Source: an uncultured Gammaproteobacteria bacterium (GTDB lineage: Bacteria; Pseudomonadota; Gammaproteobacteria; UBA9214). From it: a stretch of DNA of 20,107 nucleotides. Below the pieces are notes generated by a model. That model was not told the DNA's origin. It saw only the letters and a program-made list of their open reading frames with translations, and made no database searches. This document shows positions 2,180 through 20,104 of the stretch, one piece after another. How positions within the stretch are numbered: the stretch's first letter is position 1; each line of letters begins with the position of its first letter. The translations under genes and the position numbers were made by a program. The stretch spans positions 1-20,107 of the forward strand of contig CAWHCQ010000008.1 in assembly GCA_963827755.1 (NCBI GenBank), given 5' to 3'.

Positions 2180-2285
2180 GACCTGGTCACCTCTGTAAAT
2201 CCGGCTTGTGCAGCCCGGTGCATCCTGGTGATTATGCTAACGTACTCTAGCAGAGTTTTTCCCGGCTGGTACTGCTTTCAGTTTT

Positions 2286-3011: not shown

Positions 3012-4132
3012 CGAGCCGCCTGCTTGTTCAGAACACCCGCCATGACTTGCGCAACGGCGATGGATTGCTCAAACAGGGGATCTTTCGTGCGGTGGGCGAG
3101 TTGTGCGGCGATCATCATCTCCAGGGGCACTTCGCGTGCGGGAATACTGGTGGCCGGCAAGGTGGATTCTTCCGGCAGCAATGACAACCTGTGATCATCG
3201 CCATACAGAAAACCGGCACGCCCCGGTGCAGCACCCTGCCATGCCAGGTTCAACTTGCGGACCTGTGCGATACCTTCGGAAGAGCGGTGAATCTGCACCC
3301 GTAGATCCCCTTGTGGCGCACGAAAGGCCCAGCCCACTTCACTGCCTGAATGTACTTCCCCTTTCTGCGGCTTCCATTGTAACCGGGCCGCCAGCCAGCC
3401 AATCAGCAACCATGCCATTGGCAGCGCATGGGGTCCGTGCTCGATGCGGATTGAATCGATATTCTGCAATGCACCCGGCGCCACCCTGGGATCCAGTACC
3501 TGTGCCAGGATACGCCGCCACGGCTTCAGGTAACGCCATGCCAGGTTAAATACCGGCCGTTTTTCCCCCATTACCCAGCGTGTCATGGCACGTACGCCCT
3601 CGGCCGGGTTTGGCCAGCCGACACTGTCATAAATCACCTGGTCTGCCAGCTCTGCCAGGGTATCGAACAGGCCTTCACTAAGCGGTGGCGGTTGATTACT
3701 CGCCCACCACAGGGCCGTCGGCAAATCACCAATCAACAGGGGGCGCAACACGGATCCAAGACGCCCTGCCAATGCCGGGTCAAAGCGGATATCGACATGC
3801 TCGGAGCAGAGTTGCTTGCTGCCGTTGGTAAGCCGGCAGTGAGCCGAAACCTCGGCCTCGATGGAATGGCCTTTTGGCGCACATGCGGTCAGTAAAAATA
3901 CCCGTGCCGGATGCCTCTCCACCAACTCTGGAATACGTTCACTGACATTGCGTGCCTGTTCTTCCGTCTGACAGGCGATAATGAGATTGGACATGCAGGC
4001 ACGCGTTACCCCTTGCTCCTCCTCGCCTTCGCCATGCAGTGCTACCCAAAGCCGGTTGAGTGCCAGTTCGATGTCGGCCAGATTGACCCGTGTCCCGGAT
4101 GCAGTAATAGTTGCAGAAGATAATTCCTTCAT
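3008..4132 (-). CDS. opcA: Glucose-6-phosphate dehydrogenase assembly protein OpcA
   Basis: RACMSNLII, HPAR, CSE, PLLIGDLPTALWW and LAWRYLKPWR motifs; start overlaps the zwf stop (ATGA). Confidence 0.88.
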   Translation of the reverse strand: MKELSSATITASGTRVNLADIELALNRLWVALHGEGEEEQGVTRACMSNLIIACQTEEQARNVSERIPELVERHPARVFLLTACAPKGHSIEAEVSAHCRLTNGSKQLCSEHVDIRFDPALAGRLGSVLRPLLIGDLPTALWWASNQPPPLSEGLFDTLAELADQVIYDSVGWPNPAEGVRAMTRWVMGEKRPVFNLAWRYLKPWRRILAQVLDPRVAPGALQNIDSIRIEHGPHALPMAWLLIGWLAARLQWKPQKGEVHSGSEVGWAFRAPQGDLRVQIHRSSEGIAQVRKLNLAWQGAAPGRAGFLYGDDHRLSLLPEESTLPATSIPAREVPLEMMIAAQLAHRTKDPLFEQSIAVAQVMAGVLNKQAAR

Positions 4133-5673
4133 AGCACGCGCCAGCGCCGCCCGTCGTCTTCAATCAATCGGTCGGCTTCCACCGGTCCCCAGGTACCTGC
4201 CGGATATTCCGGCAGCCAGCGTTTGTTACCCTGGTCCCAGGCATCGAGCAAGGGCTGTATCCAGCGCCAGGATGCCTCGACGGCGTCACGCCGCATGAAC
4301 AGGGTGGCGTCTCCCGCCATTACATCAATCAATAAACGCTCATAGGCCTCGGGGGATTGATCGCCAAACGTACTGCCATAGCGAAAATCCATTTTCACAG
4401 GATAGATCTTCACCCGCGACCCGGGTAACTTGGTGGCGATGCGCAGGGACAAACCCTCGTCCGGCTGGAGACGCAACGCCAGCACATTGGGGTCAAGCGG
4501 GTGGTCGTTGTCTGAATTGAAAAGGATATGCGGCACATCCTTGAACTGCACCGCAATTTCGCTGACCCGCTTCGGCAATCGCTTCCCGGTGCGGATATAG
4601 ATGGGAACACCGGCCCAGCGCCAGTTATCAATGAACAGTCGCAGCACCACATAACTTTCCGTGGTTGAATCACTGGCGACGCCTTCTTCGCGACGATAAC
4701 CGGGCACATCATCACCCTGGAAAAAGCCATGCGCATACTGGGCACGCACAACATGCGACTCGACATCCTCTATTTTAAGGGGCCGCAAGCAGTGCAACAC
4801 ATCCAGCCGGTGGTCACGGATCACGTCGGCATCCATGGACCAGGGTGGCTCCATGGCCATAAGAGAAAGCAACTGCAGGATATGATTTTGCACCATATCG
4901 CGAAGCGCGCCTGCACTCTCGTAATAACCGGCGCGGGTTCCAACGCCCTCCGCCTCTGCCACGGTTATCTGCACGTGGTCGATATGCTTGGAATTCCACA
5001 AGGGTTCAAAGATCGCATTGCCAAAACGCATGACCAGGATATTCTGTACGGTCTCCTTGCCAAGGTAATGATCGATACGATAAATCTGCTGCTCGGCAAA
5101 GCATGCACCGATAATTTCGTTCACCTCTTCGGCACTCTGCAGGTCGCGGCCAATGGGTTTTTCCACAATGATGCGAGAGAACGGGCCATCGGATGTCTCG
5201 TCCTGCACCAGCCCTGCAGCCTTGAGTTGCTGCACGCAAACACCGATAAGACGCGGTGGAATAGCAAGGTAAAAAACCCGGTTGCCCGGAATTCCGAACT
5301 GCGGCTCTATTTCATCCAGGCGCTGCTTCAGTCTTTCATAGGCGGCAGGATCATCAAAACTGCCCTGTTGATAAAACAGCTGCCGCTCATAATTCGGCCA
5401 GTGCTCTTCATCCAGCGCCTGGCGTGAAAAACGCTCGACACCCTGGCGCGCAAACCCGCGGTATCCGGCATCATCCATCTCTTCAATGGAGAAGCCGAGT
5501 ACGGCGAAATTGGCAGGCAGCACGCCGTCCACGCCCAGGTTGTAAATCGCCGGCAACAGTTTTCGCCCGGAAAGATCGCCCGCGCCGCCGAAAATCACCA
5601 GGGTGCAGGGTTGCGGCAGAATCGCCTCGGACAGGCCCACGGTGAGTGGATTGGCATTTTCCGCTGCACTCAT
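4129..5673 (-). CDS. zwf: Glucose-6-phosphate 1-dehydrogenase
   Basis: IFGGAGDLS, EKPIG, RIDHYLGKE, DMVQNH and RWAGVP motifs. Confidence 0.97.
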   Translation of the reverse strand: MSAAENANPLTVGLSEAILPQPCTLVIFGGAGDLSGRKLLPAIYNLGVDGVLPANFAVLGFSIEEMDDAGYRGFARQGVERFSRQALDEEHWPNYERQLFYQQGSFDDPAAYERLKQRLDEIEPQFGIPGNRVFYLAIPPRLIGVCVQQLKAAGLVQDETSDGPFSRIIVEKPIGRDLQSAEEVNEIIGACFAEQQIYRIDHYLGKETVQNILVMRFGNAIFEPLWNSKHIDHVQITVAEAEGVGTRAGYYESAGALRDMVQNHILQLLSLMAMEPPWSMDADVIRDHRLDVLHCLRPLKIEDVESHVVRAQYAHGFFQGDDVPGYRREEGVASDSTTESYVVLRLFIDNWRWAGVPIYIRTGKRLPKRVSEIAVQFKDVPHILFNSDNDHPLDPNVLALRLQPDEGLSLRIATKLPGSRVKIYPVKMDFRYGSTFGDQSPEAYERLLIDVMAGDATLFMRRDAVEASWRWIQPLLDAWDQGNKRWLPEYPAGTWGPVEADRLIEDDGRRWRVL

Positions 5674-6667
5674 CTACGCATCTCCCGCGTTGCTTGCTTT
5701 CTCCGTGTGGCCACCAAACTGGCTGCGCATGGCTGAAAGCATTTTCTCGGCGAAGGTATGCTCCTGGCGGGAGCGAAACCGGGTATACAAGGCAGCGGTC
5801 AATACCTCCGCCGGCACCTCTTCTTCAATGGCAGCCTGTACCGTCCAGCGGCCTTCTCCTGAATCCTGCACATACCCGCTGAAGTTTCCCAACTGCGGAT
5901 CTTCCTGCAGCGAGATGCTACACAGGTCCAGCAGCCATGAACTCACGACACTGCCACGCCGCCATACCTCGGCGATTTCACCAAGATCCAGTTCATAACG
6001 CATGTCCTCCGGCAGCGATTCCCTGGCGGCATTCTTCATAATATCGAAGCCCTCCGCATAGGCCTGCATCATGCCGTATTCAATGCCATTGTGGATCATC
6101 TTCACAAAGTGGCCGGAACCCGCAGGGCCGCAGTGAAAATAACCGGCTATCGGCACTGCCCTTGTTCGCCGGCCGTCCAGGCGTCGCCGGGATATCGCCC
6201 AGCCCGGGAGCCAGGCAACGAAATACCGGGTCGAGATAATCCACCGCAACTTTCGGTCCGCCGATCATCAGGCAGTAGCCCCGCTCGCGCCCCCATACAC
6301 CGCCGCTGGTGCCGACATCGATATAATGAATTCCAGCTGCTGATAATTCCTGCGCACGGCGCACATCGTCCTTGAAGTAGCTGTTGCCGCCGTCAATGAC
6401 GATATCTTCTGCACTGAAGCGTTCACCCAGGGCCTTCACGGTCTGCTCGGTTGCTTCACCATGCGGCACCATGCACCAGGCGGTTCGCGGCGGCTCCAGC
6501 CAGGACACGAATTCATCCAGGGAGGTTGTCGCCCTGACGCCCTCGGCCTGCATCTGCTCTACATTTTCCGGCGACAGATCCATGCCGACACATTGATGCC
6601 CACCCGCATGCAAGCGCAACAACATATTGCTTCCCATGCGTCCCAGTCCGACCATTCCGATTTGCAT
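5674..6667 (-). CDS. gnd: Decarboxylating 6-phosphogluconate dehydrogenase (short type), one frameshift near 6145
   Basis: N-half [12 protein letters not shown]...DGGNS...DVGTSGG in ORF 6080..6700; C-half [14 protein letters not shown]...DSGEGRWT...FGGH in ORF 5674..6249; removing one base near 6145 joins them. Confidence 0.92.
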
Positions 6668-6832
6668 TGTGTAGCGTCCCCCGTGAGGTGATTTTTTCAC
6701 CGTTTAAAGATTGGCAATAATAGTACCAGACAAATAGCAGTTCTATCGGATAAAAAATGACGCACTGATGATAGAGCGACCCGCTTCAGCATGCCTTGTT
6801 TCGGGTCACAGCTTTGTGTCGCGCGCTGCGCT

Positions 6833-7753
6833 TTACAAAGCCACAAAGCGCGGGCTTTTATCTTCGCGAATGGTGTCCAGGAACAGGTCGATAAAGGTTT
6901 GCTGGTGACGATGAATATACTTGTTTTTCAGATAGGCAATGCGCGAAACTTCCCAGGGGAACAGCTTGCTTATATCCCTGGAACGTAGTGGTTTATCAAT
7001 TTCAGCATTAAATGCCATGCAGGCAATAATTCCAATTCCCATTCCATCCAGCACGTAGGTTTTAATGATATCGGTATCCGCTGCACTTAACACGATGTTG
7101 GGCTTGAGCTGTGCATGCTGGAAGGTCTCATCCAGCTTCTTGCGTCCTGTAAAACCCATTACGTAGGTAATAAGGGGATAGTCACACAGGTCCTTCAAGC
7201 CGGGCTGCTTTAGTTTCAAAATCGGGTGATCAGGCAAGGCAATCAGGCAACGGTTCCAGCGGTAACAGGGAATGCTCGCCAGCATTTCCGACTGCGCCAG
7301 CTCTTCGGTGCATATAGAAAAATCCACCACATCGTTGACCGCCAACTCTACCAGCTGCTGCGGGGTACCCTGGTGCATCTGCAATTCAACATTCGGGTAA
7401 CTCTGGTGAAACCGGTTGATCACCAGCGGTAAAATATAGCGCGCCTGGGTATGCGTACAGCCAATGCGCAGGACACCATGGCTCAGTTGTTGCGCATCCT
7501 GTGCCATGCGACGGATATTTTTAACACTCTGGATCGCATAGTGCGCCTGTTCTTCGACCTGCCTGCCGAAATCTGTCAAACCAACCAGTCGTTTACCTTT
7601 GCGAATAAACACATCGCAATCCAGCTCCTGTTCCAGGCGCTTCAATTGCTGCGAGACTGCCGACTGCACCAGGAACAGTTTTTCTGCGGTGCGTGAAACG
7701 CTGAAATCATTGTTGATCAGGGCGATCAGCGTGCTTAACTGGCGTAATTCCAT
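6833..7753 (-). CDS. cysB: LysR-family regulator, CysB/Cbl subfamily
   Basis: N-terminal HTH; THTQARY, HQGTPQQ, YPLITY..GFTGR and DTDIIKTYV motifs typical of CysB/Cbl. Orthology to cysB versus cbl cannot be resolved here. Confidence 0.85.
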   Translation of the reverse strand: MELRQLSTLIALINNDFSVSRTAEKLFLVQSAVSQQLKRLEQELDCDVFIRKGKRLVGLTDFGRQVEEQAHYAIQSVKNIRRMAQDAQQLSHGVLRIGCTHTQARYILPLVINRFHQSYPNVELQMHQGTPQQLVELAVNDVVDFSICTEELAQSEMLASIPCYRWNRCLIALPDHPILKLKQPGLKDLCDYPLITYVMGFTGRKKLDETFQHAQLKPNIVLSAADTDIIKTYVLDGMGIGIIACMAFNAEIDKPLRSRDISKLFPWEVSRIAYLKNKYIHRHQQTFIDLFLDTIREDKSPRFVAL

Positions 7754-7761
7754 TCCGACAC

Positions 7762-7809
7762 TATATCGATATTATTGATATACATTCATAATTTATCACT
7801 TATATTAAT
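7762..7809. promoter_or_regulatory. Putative LysR (T-N11-A) binding sites in the divergent cysB/dsrC-like promoter
   Basis: TATATC-N9-GATATA at 7762-7782 and a weaker ATC-N9-AAT at 7795-7809 in an AT-rich intergenic region. Confidence 0.5.
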
Positions 7810-7829
7810 AATATTGCCATGTATAGTGG

Positions 7830-7846
7830 TTGCTCTATAGCAGATA
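7830..7846. promoter_or_regulatory. Near-match to the TGCTATATAGCA palindrome (TTGCTCTATAGCAGATA)
   Basis: 16/17 identical to the copies at 10306-10322 and 17671-17687; immediately before the AGGAG SD. Confidence 0.55.
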
Positions 7847-7858
7847 GGAGACCTATCG

Positions 7859-8200
7859 ATGACCCAGCTTCAATATTTGGAATATGTCAATAATTCAGAG
7901 TCTTACGTCCTCATAGACAAGGAAGGATACCTCCTTGACCCGCTGGACTGGACGCGCGCCTTCACTGAAGGCAGGGCCCGCGAGGCAGACATCGAGCTGA
8001 CGGATAAACACTGGCACTTGATCGAAATTATCCGTGACAAATACCTGAGACTGGGTGCACTGCCGCCGATACGCAGTGTATGTAAAGCCGTTGGTTTTGA
8101 GAAACATGAACTCAAGCGGCAGTTCGGAAGCTGTCTCAATCTATGGAGGATTGCCGGATTACCCAACCCGGGTGAAGAAGCCGTCGCGTATATGAACTAG
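7859..8200 (+). CDS. TusE/DsrC/DsvC family protein lacking the conserved C-terminal cysteines
   Basis: DKEGYL..P.DW, LTDKHW.LI..IR and RIAGLP.P motifs; ends GLPNPGEEAVAYMN rather than GLPKPxGCV; AGGAG SD. Confidence 0.85.
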   Translation: MTQLQYLEYVNNSESYVLIDKEGYLLDPLDWTRAFTEGRAREADIELTDKHWHLIEIIRDKYLRLGALPPIRSVCKAVGFEKHELKRQFGSCLNLWRIAGLPNPGEEAVAYMN

Positions 8201-8242
8201 CCCCCGGTTTTAGTTCGAACCCGGTCATTCTCAGGAGTTACA

Positions 8243-8265
8243 GCACACCCCGACAGGGGCTGTGC
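8243..8265. terminator. GC-rich hairpin between convergent genes (possible terminator)
   Basis: GCACACCCC-GACA-GGGG(C)TGTGC; no clear U-tract. Confidence 0.3.
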
Positions 8266-8273
8266 ATCCCGGC

Positions 8274-9287
8274 TTACTGAAGCAGCTTCTTCGGTGTCCG
8301 GTCGGCTTTATACACGCCCCAGTGCTTTTCAGCCTTGTCCATTGGATTCTCGCCGTCAAAGCCACCCTTCCAGTTTTCATCGAAGGCTTCGAAATACAAC
8401 GAGATCACCCCGTTTTCGTTTACCCACGCATCGTACTGGTCGAAGAAGATCTTCTGCTCATCTTCCCCGGCCTTGCCGATAAGCTTGCCCTCGTAACTGG
8501 TGGTGTCATAGACCCTGCTGGTCGGCCAGCCGGTCTCGGTATAGGCAATCAAATGGTCCGGATATCGTTCTTGAATATCGCGGTAGATCGAATCTGTCCA
8601 GCTCATGGCTTCCTGAAGAGTTTTATTATTCCAGAAGGCATAGGCATGCAGGCCGATAAAATCAATCTCAGCGGCTATTGTTTTTGCGTGCTCCTTGTTC
8701 CAGAAGTTGTAATCATCATTCACCGTAACCGGTTGCCTGATTTTCGAGCGCACATCGCGGATATATCCCACCACTCTATCCATGTCCTCGATCTTGTGCC
8801 CTGACCAGTCGACAAAGATCTCGTTGCCGACATTGACTGCAACGATGATGTCGGGAAACCGGTTTGCCAGCTCAATGGCCTGGTCCACCTGCGCCTGATT
8901 CTGTTCCGGCGTCTGGTGTCCTGCCAGCCACGCGCCCTGCATGACGCGTATGGGCAGCTTGTTGTCCCGAATCACCTCGAGGATGTTTTGCGACTGCTCT
9001 CCCGAATCGTATACCCTGATCAGGTTCCATCTTTTTGAAAGCAGCTGAAGATCTTCAAGAATATTTTCTTTTGAGGTAAGACTCCCCTTGTCGGGCCCCT
9101 CTCCATCCCGGTAGGCACCGTAGGAGATACCGTTGCCTATCCACTGGCCGTCGAGTGTCGGGTTGAACGCCCGCTTGATGATGCTGACATTCGCAAGCGG
9201 CGTTTCAGCTGAAATTTTCTGTGAAGAATCGCAGGCAGCCAGCAGGAATATGGCTGCGAATAGAATGAGTACGTTTTTAGAAATCAC
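8274..9287 (-). CDS. Glycoside hydrolase family 17 (beta-1,3-glucanase/transglucosylase-like), predicted lipoprotein
   Basis: ISYGAYR, IRVYD, VNVGNE (acid/base), TETGWPT (nucleophile), YFEAFDENWK and EKHWG motifs; LAAC lipobox; GTG start at 9287 with GGAGA SD. Confidence 0.88.
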   Translation of the reverse strand: MISKNVLILFAAIFLLAACDSSQKISAETPLANVSIIKRAFNPTLDGQWIGNGISYGAYRDGEGPDKGSLTSKENILEDLQLLSKRWNLIRVYDSGEQSQNILEVIRDNKLPIRVMQGAWLAGHQTPEQNQAQVDQAIELANRFPDIIVAVNVGNEIFVDWSGHKIEDMDRVVGYIRDVRSKIRQPVTVNDDYNFWNKEHAKTIAAEIDFIGLHAYAFWNNKTLQEAMSWTDSIYRDIQERYPDHLIAYTETGWPTSRVYDTTSYEGKLIGKAGEDEQKIFFDQYDAWVNENGVISLYFEAFDENWKGGFDGENPMDKAEKHWGVYKADRTPKKLLQ

Positions 9288-9297
9288 AGTTCTCCGG

Positions 9298-9325
9298 TTG
9301 ATGCTTGATGCGTTGATGCTTGATG
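9298..9325 (+). repeat. Short tandem repeat (TTGATGC) x4 in the GH17 leader
   Basis: TTGATGC TTGATGC G TTGATGC TTGATG. Confidence 0.8.
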
Positions 9326-9333
9326 TTAACATA

Positions 9334-9343
9334 GCTATATAGC
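9334..9343. promoter_or_regulatory. GCTATATAGC palindrome upstream of the GH17 gene
   Basis: Perfect 10-bp palindrome lying between a candidate minus-strand TTGATA (9358-9353) and TATGTT (9333-9328). Confidence 0.6.
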
Positions 9344-9371
9344 AGCCAGTACTATCAAGCCGGCGTAAAGG

Positions 9372-10224
9372 CTATGTCTCCGCAACCACCGGATTAGCAA
9401 GCAATCCGACCTTTTCAATATCAATCACGATTTCATCACCCGGCTTCAGGAAGACCTGCGGGTTCCGTTTGAAGCCGACACCGCCGGGCGTTCCCGTCGC
9501 GATCACGTCGCCGGCGGACAGGGGAGTAAACGCAGAAATATATTCGATAATTTCCGGAATACTGAAGATCAGCCGGCGAGTATTCGAGTCCTGCATAATC
9601 TCGCCATTGAGGCGCGTCCGAATGGCAAGATTGTGGACATCATCGATCTCATCGGCGGTCACCAGGCAGGGCCCGAAACCACCGGTTTGCGGAAAATTCT
9701 TGCCCGCTGTGAACTGTGAGGTATGGCTCTGCCAGTCGCGCACGCTTGCATCGTTGTAGCAGCTGTACCCGGCCACGTGATCCATCGCTGCATCTTTTTC
9801 GATCGCGCGCCCTCCCCGGCCGATCACAACAGCGAGTTCGCCTTCGTAGTCCAGCTGATCAGATACCCGCGGCAATATGACAGGCTGCCGGTGCCCGACC
9901 TGCGTATCGGCAAACCGCGTAAATACAACCGGGCGGGTCGTCCTGTCACGCCCTGTTTCCATTCTGTGACTCTCGTAATTCAACCCGATACAGAGAATCT
10001 TGGCCGGATTCATTATCACCGGCAAAAACTCGATGTGGTCGGCCTCGTAATCAGCTGTCACCGACTCCATCAGCGAATACAGCTCAAGTAACGCATCAGC
10101 TGCAAGCACCGCCTTGATGTCCGGGTAGCGGCTGCCAAGGCGTGCCCCGATGTCGACGACGCCGCCGTCCCTTGAGAGCACCGTAAGTTGCCTTAGCGCT
10201 AATGGTAAAACTCAGTAGTTTCAT
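9372..10224 (-). CDS. Fumarylacetoacetate hydrolase (FAH) family protein, frameshift near 10170
   Basis: KILCIGLNY, LDYEGELAVVIG, GYSCYND.S.RDWQ and GDVIATGTPGGVG motifs; the N-terminus MKLLSF...YGALK from ATG 10224 joins DGGVVD if one base of a G-run is removed. Confidence 0.9.
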
Positions 10225-10274
10225 ATGGTTACCACCGATAATTGATTCACATTAAATCAGTAAAAAAGTTAGCC

Positions 10275-10318
10275 TTGACTTAGCTGCTATATAGCTGTTA
10301 ATCTTTTGCTATATAGCA
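10275..10318 (+). promoter_or_regulatory. Putative sigma70 promoter with tandem GCTATATAGC operator-like palindromes
   Basis: TTGACT (10275-80), 18 nt, TAATCT (10299-304) preceded by TG; palindromes at 10286-10295 (in the spacer) and 10308-10317 (near +1), 22 bp apart. Confidence 0.6.
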
Positions 10319-10347
10319 GATATTTCAAAGAATGCGAGGACACTGCA

Positions 10348-10539
10348 ATGCAGATTAGCAACGACAGGAACGAGCAGGTCTTCACTTTCGTCATCAGGGG
10401 TGGCGACATCACACGGGCGACGGCCACAATACATGCAGAGGACATCGATGTCGCCTGGAAACGGGTCTATGCCCTGTTTCCCGGAAGGGACCTGAGTGAC
10501 ATAGAAGTAGAACATGACGAAGGCACGGTCCCGGCATAA
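10348..10539 (+). CDS. Small hypothetical protein (63 aa)
   Basis: ATG with GAGGA SD 7 nt upstream; candidate promoter upstream and strong terminator downstream. Confidence 0.6.
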   Translation: MQISNDRNEQVFTFVIRGGDITRATATIHAEDIDVAWKRVYALFPGRDLSDIEVEHDEGTVPA

Positions 10540-10632
10540 CCCGGATAACCAACGCCCAAAAGACAGCGGCCTGCTTTTCGTTGTGAATATCCACAGCCAG
10601 AAGAAAGCGGTCTAACAGTTGACTCCTCCTCT

Positions 10633-10659
10633 GGGCGGCCTTCAGGCCGCCCTTTTTTT
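10633..10659 (+). terminator. Rho-independent terminator
   Basis: GGGCGGCC-TTCA-GGCCGCCC followed by T7. Confidence 0.9.
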
Positions 10660-10730
10660 ATGGGAACGGCTACGATTGTTGGTTAAAATCATGGATGTAA
10701 AAGCATGAGCAATTTTCACCAGGGAGTGGT

Positions 10731-13005
10731 GTGAAAGTCTGCCCTTTTCAGGTAGCGCATAACGTGAAGAATTTCGTTTTAAAAATGGTATTGCTCTGGG
10801 CCGTCTGCATGGCGGGTGCGGTACAGGCAACGCCACCCATTTATGCCGACGGGGATCTTGCCCCCCTCGGTGCGCCTGATGGCCTGATCAACAGTGCCGA
10901 TTACCTGATCGCCTCCCGGATTGCGCTAAACCTGCTTGCCCCAACCGCGCTGGAACTGTCTCATGGCGACATCTACCCGGCAGGCGCACCGGATGGGGTC
11001 ATCAACCTGCAGGATATGTTGCTGCTGCTAAAGCAGGTACTTGGTCAGGGCACGAATCAGTACGTCGAGAATCTTGACCTGTTTGCTCGACGGACCAGCG
11101 ACGGTCAGCGTCGATGTCGGCGCCACGAGTGCCTCCACCACACTGACCGTGGGAGGCTACACCGGACCGGGTGCCGTGGTGGTCAACGACCCGAACTTCA
11201 CCGATCCCGCAGACCCCGGCAATACCGTCTGGCATTTTTCCGCCAGCGGTGGCGTGGCCAACATTTACCTGGGCACGGCCGACCTGGGCGCAGACCCCGT
11301 GCTCGATTCCGGTTTCGACCTTTCCGGTGCGGGCCTCGGCCAACTGGTGTTCGACATCAAGGTCAACAGCCTCTCGGCCGGGGCCGTCCTGACCGTGAAG
11401 ATCGACAGTGGCTACCCGGACCTGGGGCAGGTGGCGCTGGCAGCCTGGCGATTTCACCGTTGGCAGCTGGCGCAGGGTTGCCGTTGATTTTGCCGACCTG
11501 CTCGCCGACCCGGGTCCGGGCGCCGGTCTCGACCTGGAAAACGTGGTCAATGCCTTCGTCATCGAAGTCACCGGCGGAGACGCCGATTTTTACCTGGATA
11601 ATATTTTTATCTCCCACGCCTGCCCCGATGTCGGTGGCTGTCATGCAACCCTCAAGACCAAGGCCGTCTATCACGCCTGGTCTGGAGCGACGAGTTCGAT
11701 GGCACCGGTCTCAACCTGTCAAACTGGTCTTATGAAACCGGCTACGGTAGCTTTGGCTGGGGCAATGACGAGTGGCAGTTGTATACAAGCTCTGCGAACA
11801 ACACGTCTGTTGCCGGCGGTAACCTGGCGATTTCTGCGCAATGCGCATCGCCCCCGGCGTGCGGCAAACGCAATGGAACAATTACTTCCGCCAGGCTCAA
11901 TACACTCAACAAGTTTGCCTTTAAATACGGCAAAGTCGAGGCGCGCATTAAACCTCCCGTGGGGACAGGCGCCTGGCCGGCATTCTGGATGCTGGGTAAA
12001 AATTTCCCGAGCGTCGGCTGGCCACGGACGGGCGAAATAGATGTCATGGAGATGAACAACCGTTATTCCAATGCAAACACGACACATTTCACCCTGCACT
12101 GGTGCAATGACGCCGTGAGCTCGAATCCCTGCCAGTACGATCCCGGCTGGATATACTTTAGTGAAGAGCTGACCCTGGCTGACTCACTTGCCGATGATTT
12201 TCATGTTTTCTCGGCAGAGTGGGATGCAAGCGGAATCGTGGGAAAGATCGATGACATACCCTATTTTTACAGGGCTATCGACCCGGCCACGATGGAAGAG
12301 TTTCTGGAAGAGTTTTTCATGATCCTCAACGTGGCGATCGGCGGAACGCTGGGCGGCGCGCCGGATACAAGCACGCCGTGGCCCCAGACCATGCTGGTCG
12401 ATTATGTCAGGGTATACCAGGTAGACGGCGGCGCCGGTACCTACACGATTGGCACCGATCCGGTCAGCCCGGAACTGGGTGTTTACTCGGAAAGCCATAC
12501 AGAAGCGTTACTGCCCTACAGCGCCATCATCAACGGTGCGGACTGGGGCGGCAATGTCACCAACACCAACGAAAACAGCACGGCAGTCACGGCCCTGGAC
12601 GGCAGCAAGGTGCTGGCGGCGGATTTCACGAACACGGGAAAGACCTACGGCGGCTTTATATTCAATTTTACCCTCGGCCAGGATATCTCTGCCTACCAGA
12701 CCCTGAAGTTCGGTATCGATACCGATACCTCGGCGATGCCCGGTTTTGCCAACCTGACCGTGCAGATTGAAAATCCGGCTGGGGGACAGCCAGCTCCCAA
12801 GGTATCACTGTCGGCTTACACGCCAACGATGTCCGCTAACTGGGCCGTCTATGAAATACCGCTGGTTGATTTTACGGGACAGGCTGTCGCACTCGATCTG
12901 GCCAACGTGCTCTACCTGGGCTTCTGGAACGCACGATCGGCAAGCAACCAGCTGACGTTTGGCACGCTGTACTTCGATGACATCCATTTTTCCGGTGGCG
13001 AATAA
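10731..13005 (+). CDS. Secreted multidomain GH16 (laminarinase-like) protein: signal peptide, dockerin-like duplicated loop, beta-sandwich, GH16, C-terminal CBM-like domain; frameshifts near 11088, 11440 and 11675
   Basis: Signal ending AVQA; [15 protein letters not shown] and [14 protein letters not shown] repeats; WSDEFDG (read across frames), [23 protein letters not shown] and catalytic GEIDVME; pieces lie in ORFs 10731, 11041, 11408 and 11779. Confidence 0.82.
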
Positions 13006-13190
13006 TATGCATCATGGCCGTTATCCCCGGCCGACGCATCCCGCGGGCAGGCCCTGAGCTGCCGGGATTTCATGGAGAGGATTCTCCGAAAGTACGCAGG
13101 TTTTACTTGCCGTTGTCGTACGGAAAGAACGCTCGCATTTTCAGCAGGGTTACCCCGGCCGCAAGCCTTTACTGCAATGAGGATTTCATA

Positions 13191-15588
13191 ATGTCTGTTG
13201 CTATATCTGAACTGGAAATCACTGAAAAACCGCTGTCTCCGGAAGTGCTCGCGAACATCGATGCCTACTGGCGGGCCTGCAACTACCTGGCGGCGGGCAT
13301 GATCTACCTGCAGGAAAACCCCCTGCTGAGGGAGCCGCTGAAGCCGGAGCATATCAAGAACCGGCTGCTGGGCCACTGGGGCGCGAGCCCGGGCCTGTCC
13401 TTCATGTACACCCACCTGAACCGCCTGATCGTCAAAGAGGATTTGAACGCCATTTTTCTCGCCGGTCCGGGCCACGGTGCGCCCGGGGTACTGGCGCCGG
13501 TGTACCTGGAAGGTACTTATTCAGAGATCTATCCGGACAAGAGCGAAGACGTGGAAGGCATGCAGAAATTCTTCAGGCAGTTCTCGTTTCCCGGCGGCAT
13601 TGGCAGCCACTGCACGCCGGAGACGCCCGGGTCGATCCACGAGGGCGGCGAACTGGGTTACAGCGTATCGCACGCCTTTGGCGCGGCGTTCGACAATCCC
13701 GACCTGCTGGTGGCGGTCGCGGTCGGTGACGGCGAAGCGGAAACCGGCCCGCTGGCCACCTCCTGGCACTCCAGCAAGTTTCTCAACCCGATCCGCGACG
13801 GCGCGGTACTGCCGATCCTGCATTTGAACGGCTACAAGATCAACAACCCCACACTGCTGTCGCGCATTCCGCACCAGGAACTGGAAGACCTGTTCCGCGG
13901 TTATGGCTGGAACCCCTGTCTTTGTCGAAGGGGATGATCCACAGGTCCTGCACCAGACCATGGCCGCGACCCTGGACCGCTGCCTGGCGGAGATTCGTTC
14001 CATCCAGCAACAGGCGCGCGCAAGCGGCACGGCGACACGTGCCCACTGGCCGATGATCGTGCTGCGCACACCCAAGGGCTGGACCGGACCGAAGGAAGTC
14101 GACGGCAAGAAGGTCGAGGGTTTCTGGCGGGCGCACCAGGTGCCGCTGTCGGGCATGCATGACAATCCGGCGCACCTGCAAATGCTGGAAGACTGGTTGA
14201 AGGGTTACAAACCGGAGCAACTGTTCGACGACAGCGGCAAGCTGCGGCCGGAACTGCGGGCGCTGGCGCCCACCGGCGTGCGCCGCATGAGCGCCAACCC
14301 GCACGCCAACGGCGGCCTGTTGCGCAAGGCCCTGCGCATGCCGGACTTTCGCAAGTACGCTATCGAGGTACCCTCCCCGGCCCTCAAGGAGGTGGCGAAT
14401 ACGCCGCCGCTGGGCGAGTTCCTGCGCGACATCATGCGCAGGAACATGACCAACTTCCGCGTCTTCGGTCCGGACGAGAATACCTCCAACAAGTTGCACG
14501 CCATTTACGAGGTGAGCAAGAAACTCTGGCTGGCCGATTACCTGCCGGAAGACGCGGACGGCGGCGAACTCTCGCCCGACGGACGGGTGCTGGAAATGCT
14601 TTCCGAGCATACCCTGGAGGGCTGGCTGGAGGGCTATCTGCTGACCGGGCGGCATGGCTTCTTCGCCACCTACGAGGCCTTCGTGCACGTCATCGATTCC
14701 ATGTATAACCAGCACGCCAAGTGGCTGGCAATCTGCGCAGAGATTCCCTGGCGGGCGCCGGTCTCTTCACTGAATCTGCTGATCACCTCCACCGTATGGC
14801 GCCAGGACCATAATGGTTTTACCCACCAGGATCCCGGCTTCCTCAACGTGGTGGTCAACAAGGACCCACAGGTAACGCGGATCTATTTGCCGCCGGACGT
14901 CAACACGCTGCTGTCCGTGGCCGATCATTGTCTGCGCAGCCGGGATGACGTCAACGTCATCGTTGCCGACAAACAGGCGCATTTGCAATTCCTGGATATG
15001 GACGCTGCGATCAGGCACTGCACCAAGGGTATCGGTACCTGGGACTGGGCCAGCAACGACCAGGGTTTTGAACCGGACGTGGTGATGGCGGGTTGCGGCG
15101 ACATCCCCACCCAGGAGGCGCTGGCGGCCACGGCCCTGTTGCGCGAGCACTTCGAGGATCTGAAAATCCGCTTCATCAACGTCGTCGACCTGTTTCGCAT
15201 GCAGTCGGCCGGTGAACATCCGCACGGTCTGTCCGACCGCGACTTCGACAGCCTGTTTACCCTGGACAAGCCGATCATTTTCAATTTCCACGGCTATCCC
15301 TGGCTGATCCACCGCCTCGCCTACCGCCGCACCAACCACAGGAACCTGCACGTACGCGGCTACAAGGAAAAGGGCAATATCAACACGCCGCTGGAACTGG
15401 CCATCGAAAACGAGATCGACCGTTTCAGTCTCGCCATCGACGTCATCAACCGCGTGCCGCGCCTGCAGGTGGCCGGCGCCCACGTAAAGGAAAAACTGCG
15501 CGACATGCAGATCGACTGCCGCAACTACGCCCACGAGCACGGCATCGACCAACCCGAGGCGCGTGACTGGCGGTGGCCCTACTCATAG
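13191..15588 (+). CDS. xfp: Xylulose-5-phosphate/fructose-6-phosphate phosphoketolase, frameshift near 13911
   Basis: [32 protein letters not shown] and [13 protein letters not shown] motifs; GAGGA SD; removing one base at ~13911 joins ORFs 13014 and 13903. Confidence 0.95.
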
Positions 15589-15670
15589 AGGGTGCCTACG
15601 CGTAAATGGTGTCAGAGCAGATTGGCACTTACTTAAGGGGCTCTTCCCCAAATCGAGTGCTAGATTACCG

Positions 15671-15893
15671 TTGTAGGGCCGAATTCATTCGGCCAACGGC
15701 CTGCGACGCATTTGTAGGGCCGAATTCATTCGGCCAACGGCCTGTGGCGCATTGCGCAGGGGACGTCATTACCTCCACCATCATGTCTATTGCATCAGCA
15801 CGGTTAGGCGCGGTCGTTATCCTTTGTTCACGGATATCACCGCAGCACACCTGCCCGGATGAAACATCGCTGGTCGAATGAATTCGACCCTAC
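15671..15893. repeat. GTAG-type REP cluster (two direct copies plus one inverted; REPIN/BIME-like)
   Basis: GTAGGGCCGAATTCATTCGGCC at 15673 and 15714 within a 41-bp tandem unit (39/41 identical); inverted variant GTAGGGTCGAATTCATTCGACC at 15893-15872 with a compensatory stem change. Confidence 0.85.
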
Positions 15894-15920
15894 AGGAGCA
15901 CGAAAGGGGGTCACACGAAA

Positions 15921-15974
15921 GGAGGTCAGAGCACATTTTCTCCTAATATTAGAGTTAACTGTGCTCTGACACCA
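15921..15974. repeat. 54-bp dyad site, copy 1
   Basis: GGAGGTCAGAGCAC-N10-AATATT-N10-GTGCTCTGACACCA. Confidence 0.85.
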
Positions 15975-15975
15975 T

Positions 15976-17177
15976 TTAATCCCGGATGCAGCTGACGGCC
16001 TGCAGGGCAATTTCAAGTTCCTCGTTTGTCGGGATCACCAGCAGGCTGACCCGGCTCGTTTCAGTGTGGATGTCGAAGGCACCGTTTCCGGCGGCTGGCG
16101 TTCTTCTGTGCATCAAGTGCAATCCCCAGTGCCTCCAGTCCCGTACAGCATTGCTCGCGCACCCGGGCATCGTTCTCGCCGATACCCCCGGTAAATACCA
16201 CGGCATCGAGCCCGCCCAGTGCTGCGTAATAGGCACCGATATACTTTTTTATGCGGTAACAATACATATCCAGCGCCAGCCGGGCCTGCGCATCGCCCGC
16301 GTCGGCCAGGCGGTGTACTTCGCGCATGTCATTGGCGCCACAGATGCCTTTGAGCCCGCTTTCCTTGTTGAGCAGGGATTCGATCCCGGCGTTGTCCAGA
16401 CCGGTTGTACGTGCCAGGTAGAAGTGGATCGCCGGATCCATGTCTCCACAGCGGGTACCCATGATCAGGCCCTCGAGGGGTGTCATGCCCATCGAGGTAT
16501 CCACGCTTTGCGCCCTGCGCAATCGCCGCCGCACTGGCGCCATTGCCCAGGTGCAGGGTTATCAGCCTGAGTGACGTCAGCGGCTTGCCGAGCAGGTCGG
16601 CCGCCTGTTGTGCCACGTACGCGTGCGATGTGCCGTGAAAACCGTAACGGCGTACACGCTGTTCGGTGTAGAGCGCATCGGGCAAGGCATAGCGATAGGC
16701 ATGCGCGGGGATGGATTGATGGAAGGCGGTATCGAATACGGCAACCTGGGGGACCTCCGGCGCTTCTTGCAGCGCGACCTCGATGCCCATGACGTTGGCC
16801 GGATTGTGCAGCGGCGCGAGCGGAATCATGTCCCGTATCTGCTCCACTACCGCTTCGGTAATCAGTGCGGGCTCGCGAAAGGACTCGCCGCCATGCACCA
16901 CACGATGGCCGATGGCAAACAGCTCCGCCAGCCCGGTGACCGCTCCGGACTCGCGTAACAGTATGCCGATACGCGACAGCCCCTCGCGGTGGTCGGCAAT
17001 GCACTGCTCGTAGCGGCGCTCGGTGATGTCAGTGCCCGTGTGCAGCCGGTGCCGGTGCAGGCCTTGCGCTTCGCCGATACGCTCAACAGAACCGGAAGCA
17101 AGCACCGCCCCGCCATCCATGTTGAAAAGCTGGTACTTGATGGAGGAACTTCCGGAGTTAATTACCAGGACCTTCAT
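15976..17177 (-). CDS. ackA: Acetate kinase, frameshifts near 16511 and 16093
   Basis: VINSGSSSIK, GHRVVHGG, APLHNP, DTAFH, RRYGFHGTSH, HLGNG, TSMGMTPLEG, FTGGIGEN and IPTNEE motifs across three frames. Confidence 0.95.
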
Positions 17178-17182
17178 GGAAA

Positions 17183-17234
17183 GGGTGTCAGAGCACGATT
17201 AATTTGAATATCAGCAGTGAATGTGCTGACACCC
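17183..17234. repeat. Dyad site, copy 2 (2-nt deletion in right arm)
   Basis: GGGTGTCAGAGCAC-N10-AATATC-N10-GTGC--TGACACCC. Confidence 0.85.
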
Positions 17235-17240
17235 GTTCTT

Positions 17241-17573
17241 CTACAGCGTTGTTTCAGACAGTATCAGCTCAGCAGTCTGGGAACGGGTGTAAAAACAACC
17301 GTCACGGACAAAGCCCGCTACGACCGATTGGGTGATGGCTGTCGCTTTATTAGCCGCATCGCGCTCGACTACCCAGCATTCAGGGAGCCCATCGATCAGA
17401 TGTACCGGTGCGGGCTGGCCGTTTCGAAAACGTGAGATTTCTACCCGCCCCGTTATTGAATCGCGAAAGGCCGGCATAAAACCATTTCCGCGGTTTCCCG
17501 GGCTTACGCCGGTTGTCCCGTAAAATTCGAGGTTCTCGGTTTTGAGACTTGCTTCCGTCAACAATCGGTTCAT
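17241..17573 (-). CDS. Hypothetical protein (110 aa)
   Basis: Protein-like ORF with a GF.PAF.D..TG...SRF..G.PAP.HL.DGLP..WV...GFVR.G.FYTR pattern, which I recall from uncharacterised proteobacterial proteins; start may be GTG 17585. Confidence 0.72.
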   Translation of the reverse strand: MNRLLTEASLKTENLEFYGTTGVSPGNRGNGFMPAFRDSITGRVEISRFRNGQPAPVHLIDGLPECWVVERDAANKATAITQSVVAGFVRDGCFYTRSQTAELILSETTL

Positions 17574-17670
17574 TGCCCGGTCCACCGGTATTATGTGAAA
17601 GGTGCTTGTATTTACCGCCGGTAACGACTTCGACAGTTGCGGGAATGGACAGGAATATCCACTCCTTAGA

Positions 17671-17703
17671 TTGCTATATAGCAGATATATTAGCCAGATA
17701 GCA
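17671..17703. promoter_or_regulatory. TGCTATATAGCA palindrome plus a degenerate second copy
   Basis: Perfect 12-mer at 17672-17683; AGCCAGATAGCA (9/12) at 17692-17703, 20 bp away; upstream of the 110-aa ORF. Confidence 0.6.
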
Positions 17704-17756
17704 AGTACACTCGCTCAAAAATTGTATCTCATTGAATTATAGAGATATATTACAAA

Positions 17757-17810
17757 GGGTATCAGAGCACCTTTCATCCATATATCGGAAACAGATGTAC
17801 TCTGACACCC
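17757..17810. repeat. 54-bp dyad site, copy 3
   Basis: GGGTATCAGAGCAC-N10-TATATC-N10-GTACTCTGACACCC. Confidence 0.85.
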
Positions 17811-17828
17811 TCTATCAAGGCGCTTGCA

Positions 17829-18110
17829 CTACATACAGGTACGGTAACATTCTTCCAGGCTGGTGGCGCAGTCATCTACACATTGACCGTGCACGCTTGC
17901 CGATCCCGTCAACCCCCTCGTGTCACTGCAACTGCGAGTGCAGCAGGCATGCATGGCCTTGCACCCGCGCGCGCATACCTTCTGCTGTTCGGTTGTAAAT
18001 GACGGCATTGCCGGGATTGGTTTGTAAGGTGCTGGAGAGGCACATCCAGCGAGTGCAATAACAACAATGATCAGCCAGGCCGATAGCGCTTTCCTGTTAA
18101 GGTTTTTCAT
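17829..18110 (-). CDS. Small cysteine-rich lipoprotein (93 aa)
   Basis: Basic N-terminus, hydrophobic stretch and LAGC lipobox; two CX3C-X6-CX3C motifs; AGGGG SD. Confidence 0.75.
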   Translation of the reverse strand: MKNLNRKALSAWLIIVVIALAGCASPAPYKPIPAMPSFTTEQQKVCARGCKAMHACCTRSCSDTRGLTGSASVHGQCVDDCATSLEECYRTCM

Positions 18111-18148
18111 TTTAATCCCCCTGTTGGTGTTTCTGTCATCCTGTAAAA

Positions 18149-18188
18149 GGATGTCAGAGCACATTGTAGCCTTATATGAGAAACAATT
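18149..18188. repeat. Dyad site, copy 4 (left arm and core; right arm not recognisable)
   Basis: GGATGTCAGAGCAC-N10-TATATG at the same spacing; a lone partial right arm TCTGACAC lies at 18280-18287. Confidence 0.65.
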
Positions 18189-18297
18189 GCAGGTCCTGCT
18201 CATCAGTCTTATGGAACTGCAATATATCCATGTGATGTCACCGGGTCTGTAGGAAATGACTGAATCTATATAAGGAAAGTCTGACACGTTAATGGCA

Positions 18298-20104
18298 CTA
18301 TTTAATAAAGCGGATGCTGTCGAGGTAAACGTTAACCGATGTGTTCTGCCCGCTGAGGGTCACCACGAAGCCCGTCTTGATGCTCGACAGGTCGAGCTCC
18401 TTCAGGGGAATACGGTAGCGCTGCCACTCGCTCTTCAGGGCGACGTCCTCGATCTTCGTCTTGCCCGAATCGGGGTGCGCCTTGTCCGCTTCGAGCAGTC
18501 CGACACCGATGCTGATCCGCTCGAAACCGTATTCTCCCCGCGCCCACAGTTCCAGATGCGTCGCGCCGCTGAGGTCAAAGCCGCCTTCCTGCTCGCCCCA
18601 GTTGTTGGCGGGGTGCTGCCAGGCAACGCCGACCCAGTCGCCGACCTTGCCGGTGAAGCGCATCTTGATGCAGGCCTTGCCCTCGTGCGGGTTGTCCGCG
18701 TGCTCGCCGTCCAGGGTCAGCGAATCGTACGACACCCATCCACCCGGAAGGGGCCCAGGGCATGCCCTCGAAGCCGTCCGCGTAGACGTAAAACGGCAGC
18801 GGCGTGCGCACCTCCCCCTTCACCAGCAGCGGCACATTGGCCGTCGCCGCATTGCCCGCCGCGTCGTAGGCATAGAGGAACAGCCGATACGGCCCGGGGT
18901 ACTCGGGCATACGCACTCGAGCGCCGTTGCTGCGGCCCTCGAGAATCGCGCCTTCCACTTCGGGCAGCATCGGCCGAAAGTCACCGCCGGTCGCGTAGTC
19001 GCCGGACTCGCGCCGCAACACCCAGCGCACGCGGATTACCGAGTCTTCGGGATCGGCAATGACGGCGCGCACGCGCACCTCGTCGCCCGGTTCCACCTGC
19101 GGTTCACCCTCGATGATCAAGGGCTGGACCGTGGGTGCGCGGTCCTTCGGCGCGCTGCCGGACCAGAGTTCGGTCATGGTGTCGACCGCACCGACCCGGG
19201 CGCCATCTTCAAGGAACATGCCGAACCAGGTCGCGGTCGCTTCCATCTTGTAGCCCCAGGTAAAGACGTACGAACCAAGCGCAAGACCGGGCGCGCCAAG
19301 CACCGCGCGCTCGTAGCTGCTGCCGGTAGAACGCCGCCTTCTCCGTGCTTGTCAGTTCATAGGGAGCGCCCCAGTCGCTCTTGGCAACCTCCCACGACCC
19401 GGGCGGCCCGAACTCGGTAAGCACAAAAGGCTTGGTCCCACCGCCCTTGCGGTAGCGCTCCGGAACAGACTACGGCGCCGCCGTAAGAGTTGATGCCGTG
19501 GATGTCGATGGCCGGGCACGCTTGTGCACGTACTCGATGCGCTCGCCGCCGACTCGGCGGTGACGGTCATGGTCGGGTGTGCGGATCGAGCTCCTTGACC
19601 ATGGCGGCGATGTCGTTCACCGCCTTCCAGATGGCCGGGTTGTCGCCGTCCTCGAAGCCTTCCATCTCGTTGCCGATACCCCACAGCAGGACTGCCGGAT
19701 GGTCCTTGTAGCGCAGCACGGTCTCGCGGGCTCGCTCCAGCTGTTCGCGCGACCTGGGTCTTGTCGTTGTAGTCGAAGCCGTGGCGTTCGTGGCCGAGCC
19801 AGATGCCGACGGTCACGGACAGGCCAAGGGCATGCGCCTCGTCGAGACGCGCGCCGATGTCATCGCCGCCCCAGGTGCGCACCGAGTTCGCGCCCGCGGC
19901 CGCCAGCTGCTCCAGCGAGGCGCTGCCGCCGGCGCCACGGATGAAGTACGGCTCACCGTCGCGCAGCAGCTGCCAGCCCTGCCCTGTCTGGCGCAGTTCC
20001 ACCGGGATGGCCTTTGCCGATACGGCCGCAGGCCACAGCGCCAGCACAGCGGTTAACAGGAGCAACGCGCGTGCGGTTGTCTGCAAGGGATTCCTGCAAT
20101 ACAT
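18298..20104 (-). CDS. Secreted clan GH-A glycoside hydrolase (GH2 TIM-barrel-like, possibly GH158) with Ig-like and C-terminal CBM-like domains; several frameshifts
   Basis: Signal peptide; GEPYFIRGAGG, GANSVRTWG, WGIGNEME (acid/base, read in another frame) and LTEFGP (nucleophile); C-terminal beta-sandwich WVGVAW...YLDSIRF; pieces in ORFs 19352, 19209, 18575 and 18298. The start is at the window edge and uncertain. Confidence 0.75.

Follow-up and report, generated by a model that had tools for sequence, protein, structure and literature searches.

Dyads and genes at the locus

The stretch of DNA analysed here, called the window in the following, comprises 20,107 nt from an uncultured bacterium of the Gammaproteobacteria (GenBank assembly GCA_963827755.1, contig CAWHCQ010000008.1). 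It is contig C8 of an assembly of 2.85 Mb in 52 contigs (G000; 57% GC, 92% complete). Towards its right end, neighbouring genes are separated by imperfect palindromes, the dyads, each composed of an arm, a spacer and the same arm in inverted orientation. The nature of these dyads is the subject of this report. We consider it highly probable that they are miniature non-autonomous elements, built from two terminal inverted repeats (TIRs) of about 27-33 nt that belong to a transposase unit of the HUH/Y1 type and are joined head to head. Such a unit is known as a TIRtron (Di Nocera et al. 2013), and the dyads would work in the manner of REPINs with their RAYT.

With the arm GGGTGTCAGAGCAC and up to three mismatches, nine occurrences are found in the window versus 1.67 expected, and none of 100 shuffles yields nine or more. 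The search bears out the coordinates of three full dyads claimed in the original prediction, which had been made from the sequence of the window (15921-15974, 17183-17234 and 17757-17810). It likewise bears out their spacer of exactly 26 nt, and their distances of 1, 6 and 18 nt from the stop codons of ackA, a 114-aa open reading frame (ORF) and a lipoprotein ORF agree with the ORF list. Flanks included, dyad 1 extends from 15918 to 15978 and consists of two abutted TIRs (arm, 26 nt, arm) with A/T flanks, the stop codon of ackA being located inside its T-run. Dyad 2 (17180-17237), 5 nt upstream of the ackA start, is kept at the same position in a relative, G022, and in degenerate form in another one, G006. 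Dyad 3 extends from 17754 to 17813 and has a diverged spacer. The arms are imperfect: copy 1 has two mismatches in one arm and one in the other, copy 3 has one in each, and the right arm of copy 2 is 2 nt short. A lone left arm (TAAATGGTGTCAGAGCAG, 15603-15620, the arm match being 15607-15620) directly follows the stop codon of xfp, and 17 nt of it are the perfect inverted complement of 15962-15978.

The genes concerned are xfp (phosphoketolase; 13191-15588, plus strand), which is convergent with ackA (acetate kinase; 15976-17177, minus strand), and, further along the minus strand, the 114-aa ORF (17241-17585) and a Cys-rich lipoprotein ORF (17829-18110). The 114-aa ORF has no Pfam match and is also found beside ackA in G022. 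The lipoprotein ORF, equally devoid of a Pfam match, has an LAGC lipobox in its sequence. Between the lone arm and dyad 1 resides a block of another repeat family, the GTAG-tagged REP block (15639-15896), with two direct copies and one inverted copy.

The repeat family and its Y1 transposases

G022 is syntenic with window positions 2273-20044 and contains, exactly at the position of the fourth copy in the window, an intact ORF for an HUH/Y1 transposase of 234 amino acids between a left and a right arm. From left to right, the unit consists of the left arm, a gap of 13-16 nt, the minus-strand gene, a leader of about 97 nt, a second gap of 13-16 nt and the right arm. Its ends are inverted repeats of about 33 nt, which also surround the Y1 genes of G012 and G006, and their inner 13 nt match the two halves of the dyad spacer. 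A dyad is therefore two terminal repeats abutted (27+27 nt) with nothing between them, and its central TA is the junction of their inner ends.

The fourth copy of the window had been described as partial. Its left part (18146-18188) indeed comprises a left arm (18149-18162) and a complete 26-nt spacer, with the expected right arm and the Y1 gene deleted; yet the copy is not simply partial, as a degenerate right arm follows 116 nt onward at about 18280-18290. This arm, GTCTGACACG, is listed as that of the former transposase unit at 18279-18290 and is followed by an insertion of about 11 nt. Between the two parts lie 93 nt (18186-18278, minus strand) that align with the stretch from gene start to right arm in G022 and G012. 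Over 18186-18300 the alignment with the Y1 leaders of these genomes has a mean column identity of 81%, and the homology begins at the start codon. Leader remnant, left arm and complete spacer thus identify copy 4 as the remnant of a unit that lacks one right arm and the whole ORF. The enzyme had been predicted to be encoded outside the window. This is correct in so far as a paralogue of only 47% identity is found elsewhere in the assembly; the cognate gene itself, however, once resided at copy 4 and was deleted there, with the arms and 93 nt of leader left behind. G022 also carries an internally deleted unit of 348 nt. The locus thereby offers a natural series from the intact unit (G022) via the 348-nt derivative and the gene-less remnant of the window to the dimer of 54 bp.

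In the whole G000 assembly the arm is matched 67 times with up to two mismatches, versus seven times for the reversed pattern. The genome scan for dyads that had been proposed as a check returns 22 of them; the spacer has indeed 26 nt in 17, while the others have 24, 25, 28, 28 and 57 nt. The claim that the spacers differ save for a central ATAT fails genome-wide: the 17 copies with a 26-nt spacer have the consensus AAA-GGGTGTCAGAGCAC-ATTTtcTgCTtATATTAGaGttAAAT-GTGCTCTGACACC-TTT, in which the A-run and T-run flanks are conserved as well. With this shared consensus the spacer has to be regarded as conserved, not free, and the entire 60 bp or so are a single conserved repeat family. Variants of the dimer were also seen, one with a 57-nt spacer at C7:34849-34933 of G000 and a longer one in G004 and G018, where the spacer has 42 nt and an extended stem (AATTTTTACTAATATT ... 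AATATTAGTAAAAATT) encloses a loop of about 10 nt.

The dyads have a marked potential to form hairpins. As single-stranded DNA, copies 1 and 2 of the window fold with -13.5 kcal/mol (z -5.4) and -12.6 kcal/mol (z -4.2), respectively, the diverged dyad 3 with -7.8 kcal/mol (z -2.6), and two dimers of contig C9 with -21.3 and -20.2 kcal/mol (z -12.4 and -8.2).

The family is widespread in the genus. A 12-mer of the arm is present in 29 of 37 genus genomes. The exact dyad was found in 13 of 24 sampled members and in none of the 16 genomes that represent other families of the class. Public records contain at least 103 stretches in which the core is combined with a spacer of 24-28 nt; their labels are Massilia, Thiohalophilus, Aliidiomarina, Dyella, Granulosicoccaceae and, in many cases, uncultured Gammaproteobacteria. 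Within a genome the copies are tightly clustered. In G000, 32 of 34 arms (at most one mismatch) fall into four stretches, drawn after the data were seen, that total 2.06% of the genome (C9, 71-113 kb; C3, 12-24.5 kb; C8, 15.5-18.4 kb; C4, 3-4.5 kb). In G022 all 13 exact 12-mers (six forward, seven reverse) are found within the 16.2 kb of C7:369,827-386,063, with the Y1 gene in their midst (381,350-382,051), and seven of the eight exact 12-mers of G002 lie in C5:196-236 kb.

Several lines of evidence bear on the identity of the enzyme. The protein associated with the arms of the window, here called the main type, matches PF01797 (Y1_Tnp) at 56.4 and 54.9 bits, the cut-off being 23, and H60 and H62 of the HUH motif as well as Y120 are invariant in 19 aligned Y1 proteins. 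Since a sequence search of the Protein Data Bank returned no match at E up to 0.01, a fold search was needed. The structure model (mean predicted local distance difference test score, pLDDT, of 87) retrieved as top Foldseek match 4ER8, the E. coli RAYT in complex with a REP hairpin (E 3.9e-8; template modelling score 0.76 on the target), followed by IS608, the TnpA of ISDra2 and IS200 transposases. As a side aspect, most of the 19 proteins end in tails rich in G-R-P-(R/K), such as KGRPRK, one clade having GGDRKS instead. We take these tails to resemble AT-hooks; the repeats are flanked by A/T-rich stems.

Y1 homologues (E up to 1e-10) were detected in 28 of the 37 genus genomes. At 17 of 20 Y1 loci an inverted repeat pair is found on both sides of the gene; the remaining three comprise L038 and L042, which are truncated by a contig end, and L049, a fragment of a gene. 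A maximum-likelihood tree was built from 19 Y1 proteins, with the L049 fragment left out, and its clades agree with the division into repeat types. Support for the main type (G006, G022, G012) is 100/100; the other types are ATCAAT..ATTGAT, AAAACC, GAAAA, GGGGACAG and, on C3 of G000, TTCAAG. Each Y1 clade of the genus thus has a flanking repeat of its own, and all of these are built around a common core similar to GGGGWSAS. Pfam Y1_Tnp matches four places in G000 itself; the best one is a 233-aa ORF in the middle of the repeat cluster on C3, flanked by the variant arm ATTCAAGGGGTCAGAGTACTTGAA. Apart from two truncated frames (C13 and C11; 58% identity over the first half), a search of G000 with the G022 protein yields just this paralogue, which is 47% identical.

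The repeats around the Y1 genes can be compared directly. From 51 anchor matches near these genes, 34 repeat units were kept and 17 dropped, being coding sequence or extra neighbouring copies. The 34 units align without gaps, and G10, G11, G13, C15 and G17 are invariant. In a stem of seven pairs around the core, 72.7% of the cells are paired versus 52.5% in shuffles, a value that none of 500 shuffles reaches. The covariation of this stem amounts to 0.44 versus 0.13 in shuffles and at most 0.16 in slid controls, the number of independent events being small because the 34 rows fall into about seven related groups. The paralogous types GGGGTCAG and GGGGACAG match GGGGWSAS, and GGGGTCGG differs from it at one position. 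As a second option the original prediction had mentioned a mobile repeat family tied to HUH/Y1 enzymes with GGGGWSAS-type repeats. This option is supported: the Y1 genes are flanked by exactly these arms, and the motif has been published for TIRYT.

Weighing the possible explanations

How might such dimers arise and spread? Each repeat has a conserved GG(G/T)GTCAG core within a short covarying A/T stem, and the dimer, once single-stranded, folds into a hairpin of about 27 bp. The Y1 enzyme may bind these dimers or repeats while the DNA is single-stranded, for which the replication fork is the probable place. The enzyme would then cut and rejoin repeats without duplicating the target, and new copies would be seeded mostly into nearby intergenic gaps. 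Transposition of this kind, with its local hopping, might even go on at present. Locus and genus make up a compact system: the natural series described above, together with at least six clades with their own repeats and a shared core, provides material for working out how a Y1 enzyme reads its ends. For annotation it means that the dyads are repeats and not attC sites, and that their flanks can supply stop codons, as in the case of ackA. The dyads also mark a neighbourhood that is prone to rearrangement.

Several observations weigh against an origin of the dyads from Y1 units by transposition. No transposition event was seen in the genomes compared, and there is no clean pair of a filled and an empty site, because the relatives are only 70-90% identical. 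An empty-site analysis between xfp and ackA had to be given up: in G006 the gene ends overlap without a dyad, and junction and target are too diverged to be read. The tight clustering, as opposed to the dispersal of classical REPINs, is unexplained by plain transposition alone. The stem-loop of a single arm is weak, with -2.1 kcal/mol and z -0.5. With GGTGTCAG, the main arm deviates from GGGGWSAS by one base. Pfam at E up to 1 reports Y1_Tnp alone and no C-terminal helix-turn-helix (HTH) domain (Bac_DnaA_C, HTH_23, HTH_28), the C-terminal part of the model (residues 167-213) being helical. The C3 paralogue, the only protein scanned against NCBIfam NF047646 (REP_Tyr_transpos), scores 74.7 bits and thus stays below the cut-off of 80. 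Finally, a main-type gene (at least 85% identity) occurs in just three of the 37 genus genomes, G022, G006 and G012, and is missing from the assemblies of G000 (28 exact 12-mers; 92% complete) and G046 (34 exact 12-mers; 77% complete).

The last point deserves a comment. The genomes richest in the 12-mer, G006 with 46 and G012 with 49, both carry the main-type gene. The many copies in G000 and G046, on the other hand, imply that the gene need not be present for copies to persist. Since it is missing from the G000 assembly, the family of the window looks orphaned. On comparison of the genomes, the roughly 20 dyads of G000 are probably an orphaned population, unless the C3 paralogue mobilises them across types. 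The main-type gene could, of course, also be located in the 8% that the assembly lacks, or else cross-action by the C3 paralogue could play a part.

Some features of the locus have also to be considered in a different light. The stretch from ackA to the following glycosidase gene differs in content between three genomes, with dyads as its boundaries in every case: in G000 it holds the 114-aa ORF, the lipoprotein ORF and the gene-less remnant, in G022 the 114-aa ORF and the Y1 unit, and in G006 an unrelated short ORF. The only homologue of the lipoprotein ORF in G022 resides on another contig with no arms nearby. Three synteny breaks between G000 and G022 abut dyads of G022: one is at the end of an inverted block, 11 nt from a dyad, one at the start of a homology, 8 nt from another, and one falls inside a dyad. 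The inverted block comprises a LysR-type regulator (window 6828-8200; L063 2443-3814 on C7 of G022); it has no dyad at either end in the window and, at one end, the dyad at 11 nt in G022.

The extreme clustering, the three contents between ackA and the glycosidase gene, and the synteny breaks beside dyads would be compatible with a more ambitious idea, namely that Y1 enzyme and TIR dimers form a local system which fills nearly every intergenic gap over 16-40 kb round the gene, and that single-strand cutting and rejoining of neighbouring dimers drives loss, inversion and replacement of the genes enclosed by them. If this were true, we would be dealing with a cassette-like hypervariable array that is driven by an HUH enzyme instead of an integrase. 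We consider it rather unlikely.

Another possibility is that the dyads do not move at all. They could be terminators, stabilisers of mRNA or protein-binding sites at gene ends, their likeness being due to selection or gene conversion. In favour of such a static role, the three full copies of the window lie 1-18 nt past stop codons of co-oriented genes, they have A-run and T-run flanks and form stable hairpins, and the position of dyad 2 is kept in G000, G022 and G006. Moreover, REPs are described as residing mostly downstream of coding regions and acting as RNA elements (PMC3733652). A terminator scan, however, flagged none of the dyads; its four terminator-like sites are located elsewhere, and the dyads have long loops and T-runs of only 3-4 nt, which led us to reject the terminator variant. 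Nor does any Rfam family match them: at E up to 1 the scan returned merely sub-threshold hits to a microRNA hairpin and to sbcD, far below the gathering scores. Above all, a static role leaves unexplained why the repeats are the ends of transposase genes, why the repeat types are specific for enzyme clades and why deletion derivatives of the unit exist. As a full explanation it is improbable; as a secondary use beside an origin from the transposase unit, a hairpin function is compatible with the data.

The first option of the original prediction was a gene capture or shuffling system distinct from integrons, with crossover at the central TA. In this case the dyads would be crossover sites of a site-specific recombinase, or of the Y1 enzyme itself, and units of gene plus site would be captured, exchanged and inverted as in integrons. 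The variable contents beside ackA, the lipoprotein homologue on a different contig and the breaks near dyads can be adduced here too, as can a public contig of 869 nt (run X4) that matches the window only over 17180-17831, a stretch that starts at the edge of dyad 2 and ends 21 nt beyond dyad 3. Within it the contig differs from the window at 14 positions; the other 182 and 35 letters have no fit in the window at 88% likeness. Yet no fitting recombinase is encoded near the arrays, and the dyad centre finds its explanation as the junction of two terminal repeats. The six matches to tyrosine recombinases (PF00589) are distributed over C26, C21, C15, C14 and C40, and the repeat-rich C9, C3, C8 and C4 are free of them. 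The units between dyads on C9 contain one to four genes on both strands that belong to ordinary, housekeeping-type families (RIO kinase, solute symporter, aldose epimerase, AhpC/TSA, RNase T, aldo-keto reductase, response regulator). As had been proposed as a check, the gene content between sites was compared among relatives. It does differ, but the genes of a repeat-free control of 20 kb from C9 are spread over five relatives no less than those of the repeat-rich 20 kb, so that the differences do not demonstrate cassette exchange; the scattering on C9 was in consequence dropped as evidence for a mosaic array. The dyads, furthermore, are intergenic, where synteny breaks fall anyway. With the control equally scattered and breaks to be expected in intergenic DNA, a cassette-like exchange is retained as a very improbable reading.

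Public sequence data were consulted in the form of 24 runs, all as contigs, each with at most 0.26 of the sampled words. On the window the summed depth of these contigs is very high where the repeats are located, and at 15925 and 15977, the edges of dyad 1, many different flanks are seen. None spans the whole stretch, and in the covered parts no joint removes a dyad; the listed joints are all found within the GTAG repeat cluster (15695-15872).

The more specific versions of a recombination site can be dismissed briefly: serine-recombinase att sites were rejected, as PF00239 finds no such enzyme in the 92%-complete assembly (the control was found in 12 of 14 genomes), and so was an integron, whose integrase model TIGR02249 reaches at best 105.9 bits against a cut-off of 265, on an internally deleted remnant of the dyad-free contig C40, the tyrosine recombinases being on other contigs than the arrays. 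That remnant (G000:C40:95643-96103; L001, L008) consists of two short frames, 60 nt apart, that match positions 15-82 and 249-314 of the model, the latter with 106 bits. The dyads also lack the attC ends RYYYAAC/GTTRRRY, as had been noted before: their ends read (A)AAGGGTG ... CACCCTT(T). A GTTAAAT is seen inside some dyad copies only, beside the right arm.

A few other features of the window may be mentioned for completeness. The GTAG-tagged block contains three units (TGTAGGGCCGAATTCATTCGGCC), two of them in a 41-nt tandem and one in inverted orientation. With a length of about 258 nt, the block has many copies of 70-95% identity in G050 and G012, is absent from the corresponding site of G022 and reaches a very high summed depth in contigs of sediment metagenomes. 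The palindrome TGCTATATAGCA is found at five sites of the window (7831, 9333, 10285, 10307 and 17672), which corresponds to 10 strand matches versus 0.13 expected, 10 or more being reached in none of 100 shuffles. All five sites lie in gaps beside gene starts, and the palindrome is also present upstream of the homologue of the 114-aa ORF in G022; it has the appearance of a regulatory element, operator or promoter, that belongs to a single regulon. Finally, ackA is distributed over three reading frames in the window, and xfp is split into two near 13903-13937. Contigs of three public runs are one base shorter at 16095 and at 16510-16512, where ackA changes its frame. Because of these differences of 1 nt, the breaks in ackA and xfp may be consensus errors of the assembly rather than marks of true pseudogenes.

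Comparison with known systems

The dyads look like the sites of integron attC arrays: they are imperfect palindromes about 60 bp long with a hairpin fold, and each gap between the mostly co-oriented genes contains one. They differ in that IntI, the R''/R' core sites and promoterless single-ORF cassettes are all missing here, and that the sites are ends of Y1 units. The likeness to IS200/IS605 elements and to their miniature derivatives, the PATEs, comprises the single-strand chemistry of HUH/Y1 enzymes, suggested here by the fold match, the structured ends, and miniatures that keep only these ends. The ends of the insertion sequences (IS), however, are not inverted repeats of each other, and the IS multiplies as a whole, whereas here the gene is mostly single per type and the ends alone multiply.

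Closer is the relationship to REPIN/RAYT systems (Bertels and Rainey 2011, PMC3116915), in which the REPINs almost always flank RAYT genes (Bertels et al. 2017, bioRxiv 10.1101/119735). There as here, two inverted repeats form a hairpin and are the non-autonomous partner of the Y1 gene that they flank. One repeat population belongs to each enzyme lineage, and the fold of our enzyme is closest to that of the REP-bound RAYT in 4ER8. The dyads are distinguished by a conserved loop between A/T stems in place of a GC-rich palindrome, and the dimer consensus has no GT[AG]G tag at the end of such a palindrome. Copies are counted in tens, not in hundreds, and they are clustered, not dispersed. If the clustering results from local hopping, it would set these elements apart from the dispersed REPINs.

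The closest relatives are the TIRYT genes and their TIRtrons. A text search of the literature with 9-10-mers of the arm gave only unrelated primer matches among the matches listed, supplements and figures being outside the search. The literature found under the names TIRYT, TIRtron and GGGGWSAS (PMC3733652, PMC6006769) consists, as far as the available text goes, of sequence surveys without an enzyme experiment. According to Di Nocera et al. (2013, PMC3733652), TIRYTs are RAYT-like genes flanked by long TIRs, many of which share GGGGWSAS, and the members of the TIR families are found singly, as dimers or in clusters. A later classification (Quentin et al. 2018, PMC6006769) places TIRYTs in TnpA-Y1 subclass 2.1, characterised by an HTH domain at the C-terminus. 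Measured against the text available from these sources, the differences are the main arm GGTGTCAG in our case, an enzyme without an HTH by Pfam, a dimer that is an exact fusion of TIRs with a fixed inner part of 26 nt, and the confinement of the copies to tens of kb. The common traits comprise the RAYT-like Y1/HUH gene, the long TIRs with a GGGGWSAS-like motif and without a GTAG tag, the moderate abundance of the repeats as singles, dimers and clusters, and the several paralogues per genome, each with its own repeats. The dyads, then, are no new gene-cassette system; they are a real and well-defined repeat family of the TIRYT/TIRtron kind, a close kin of RAYT and REPIN.

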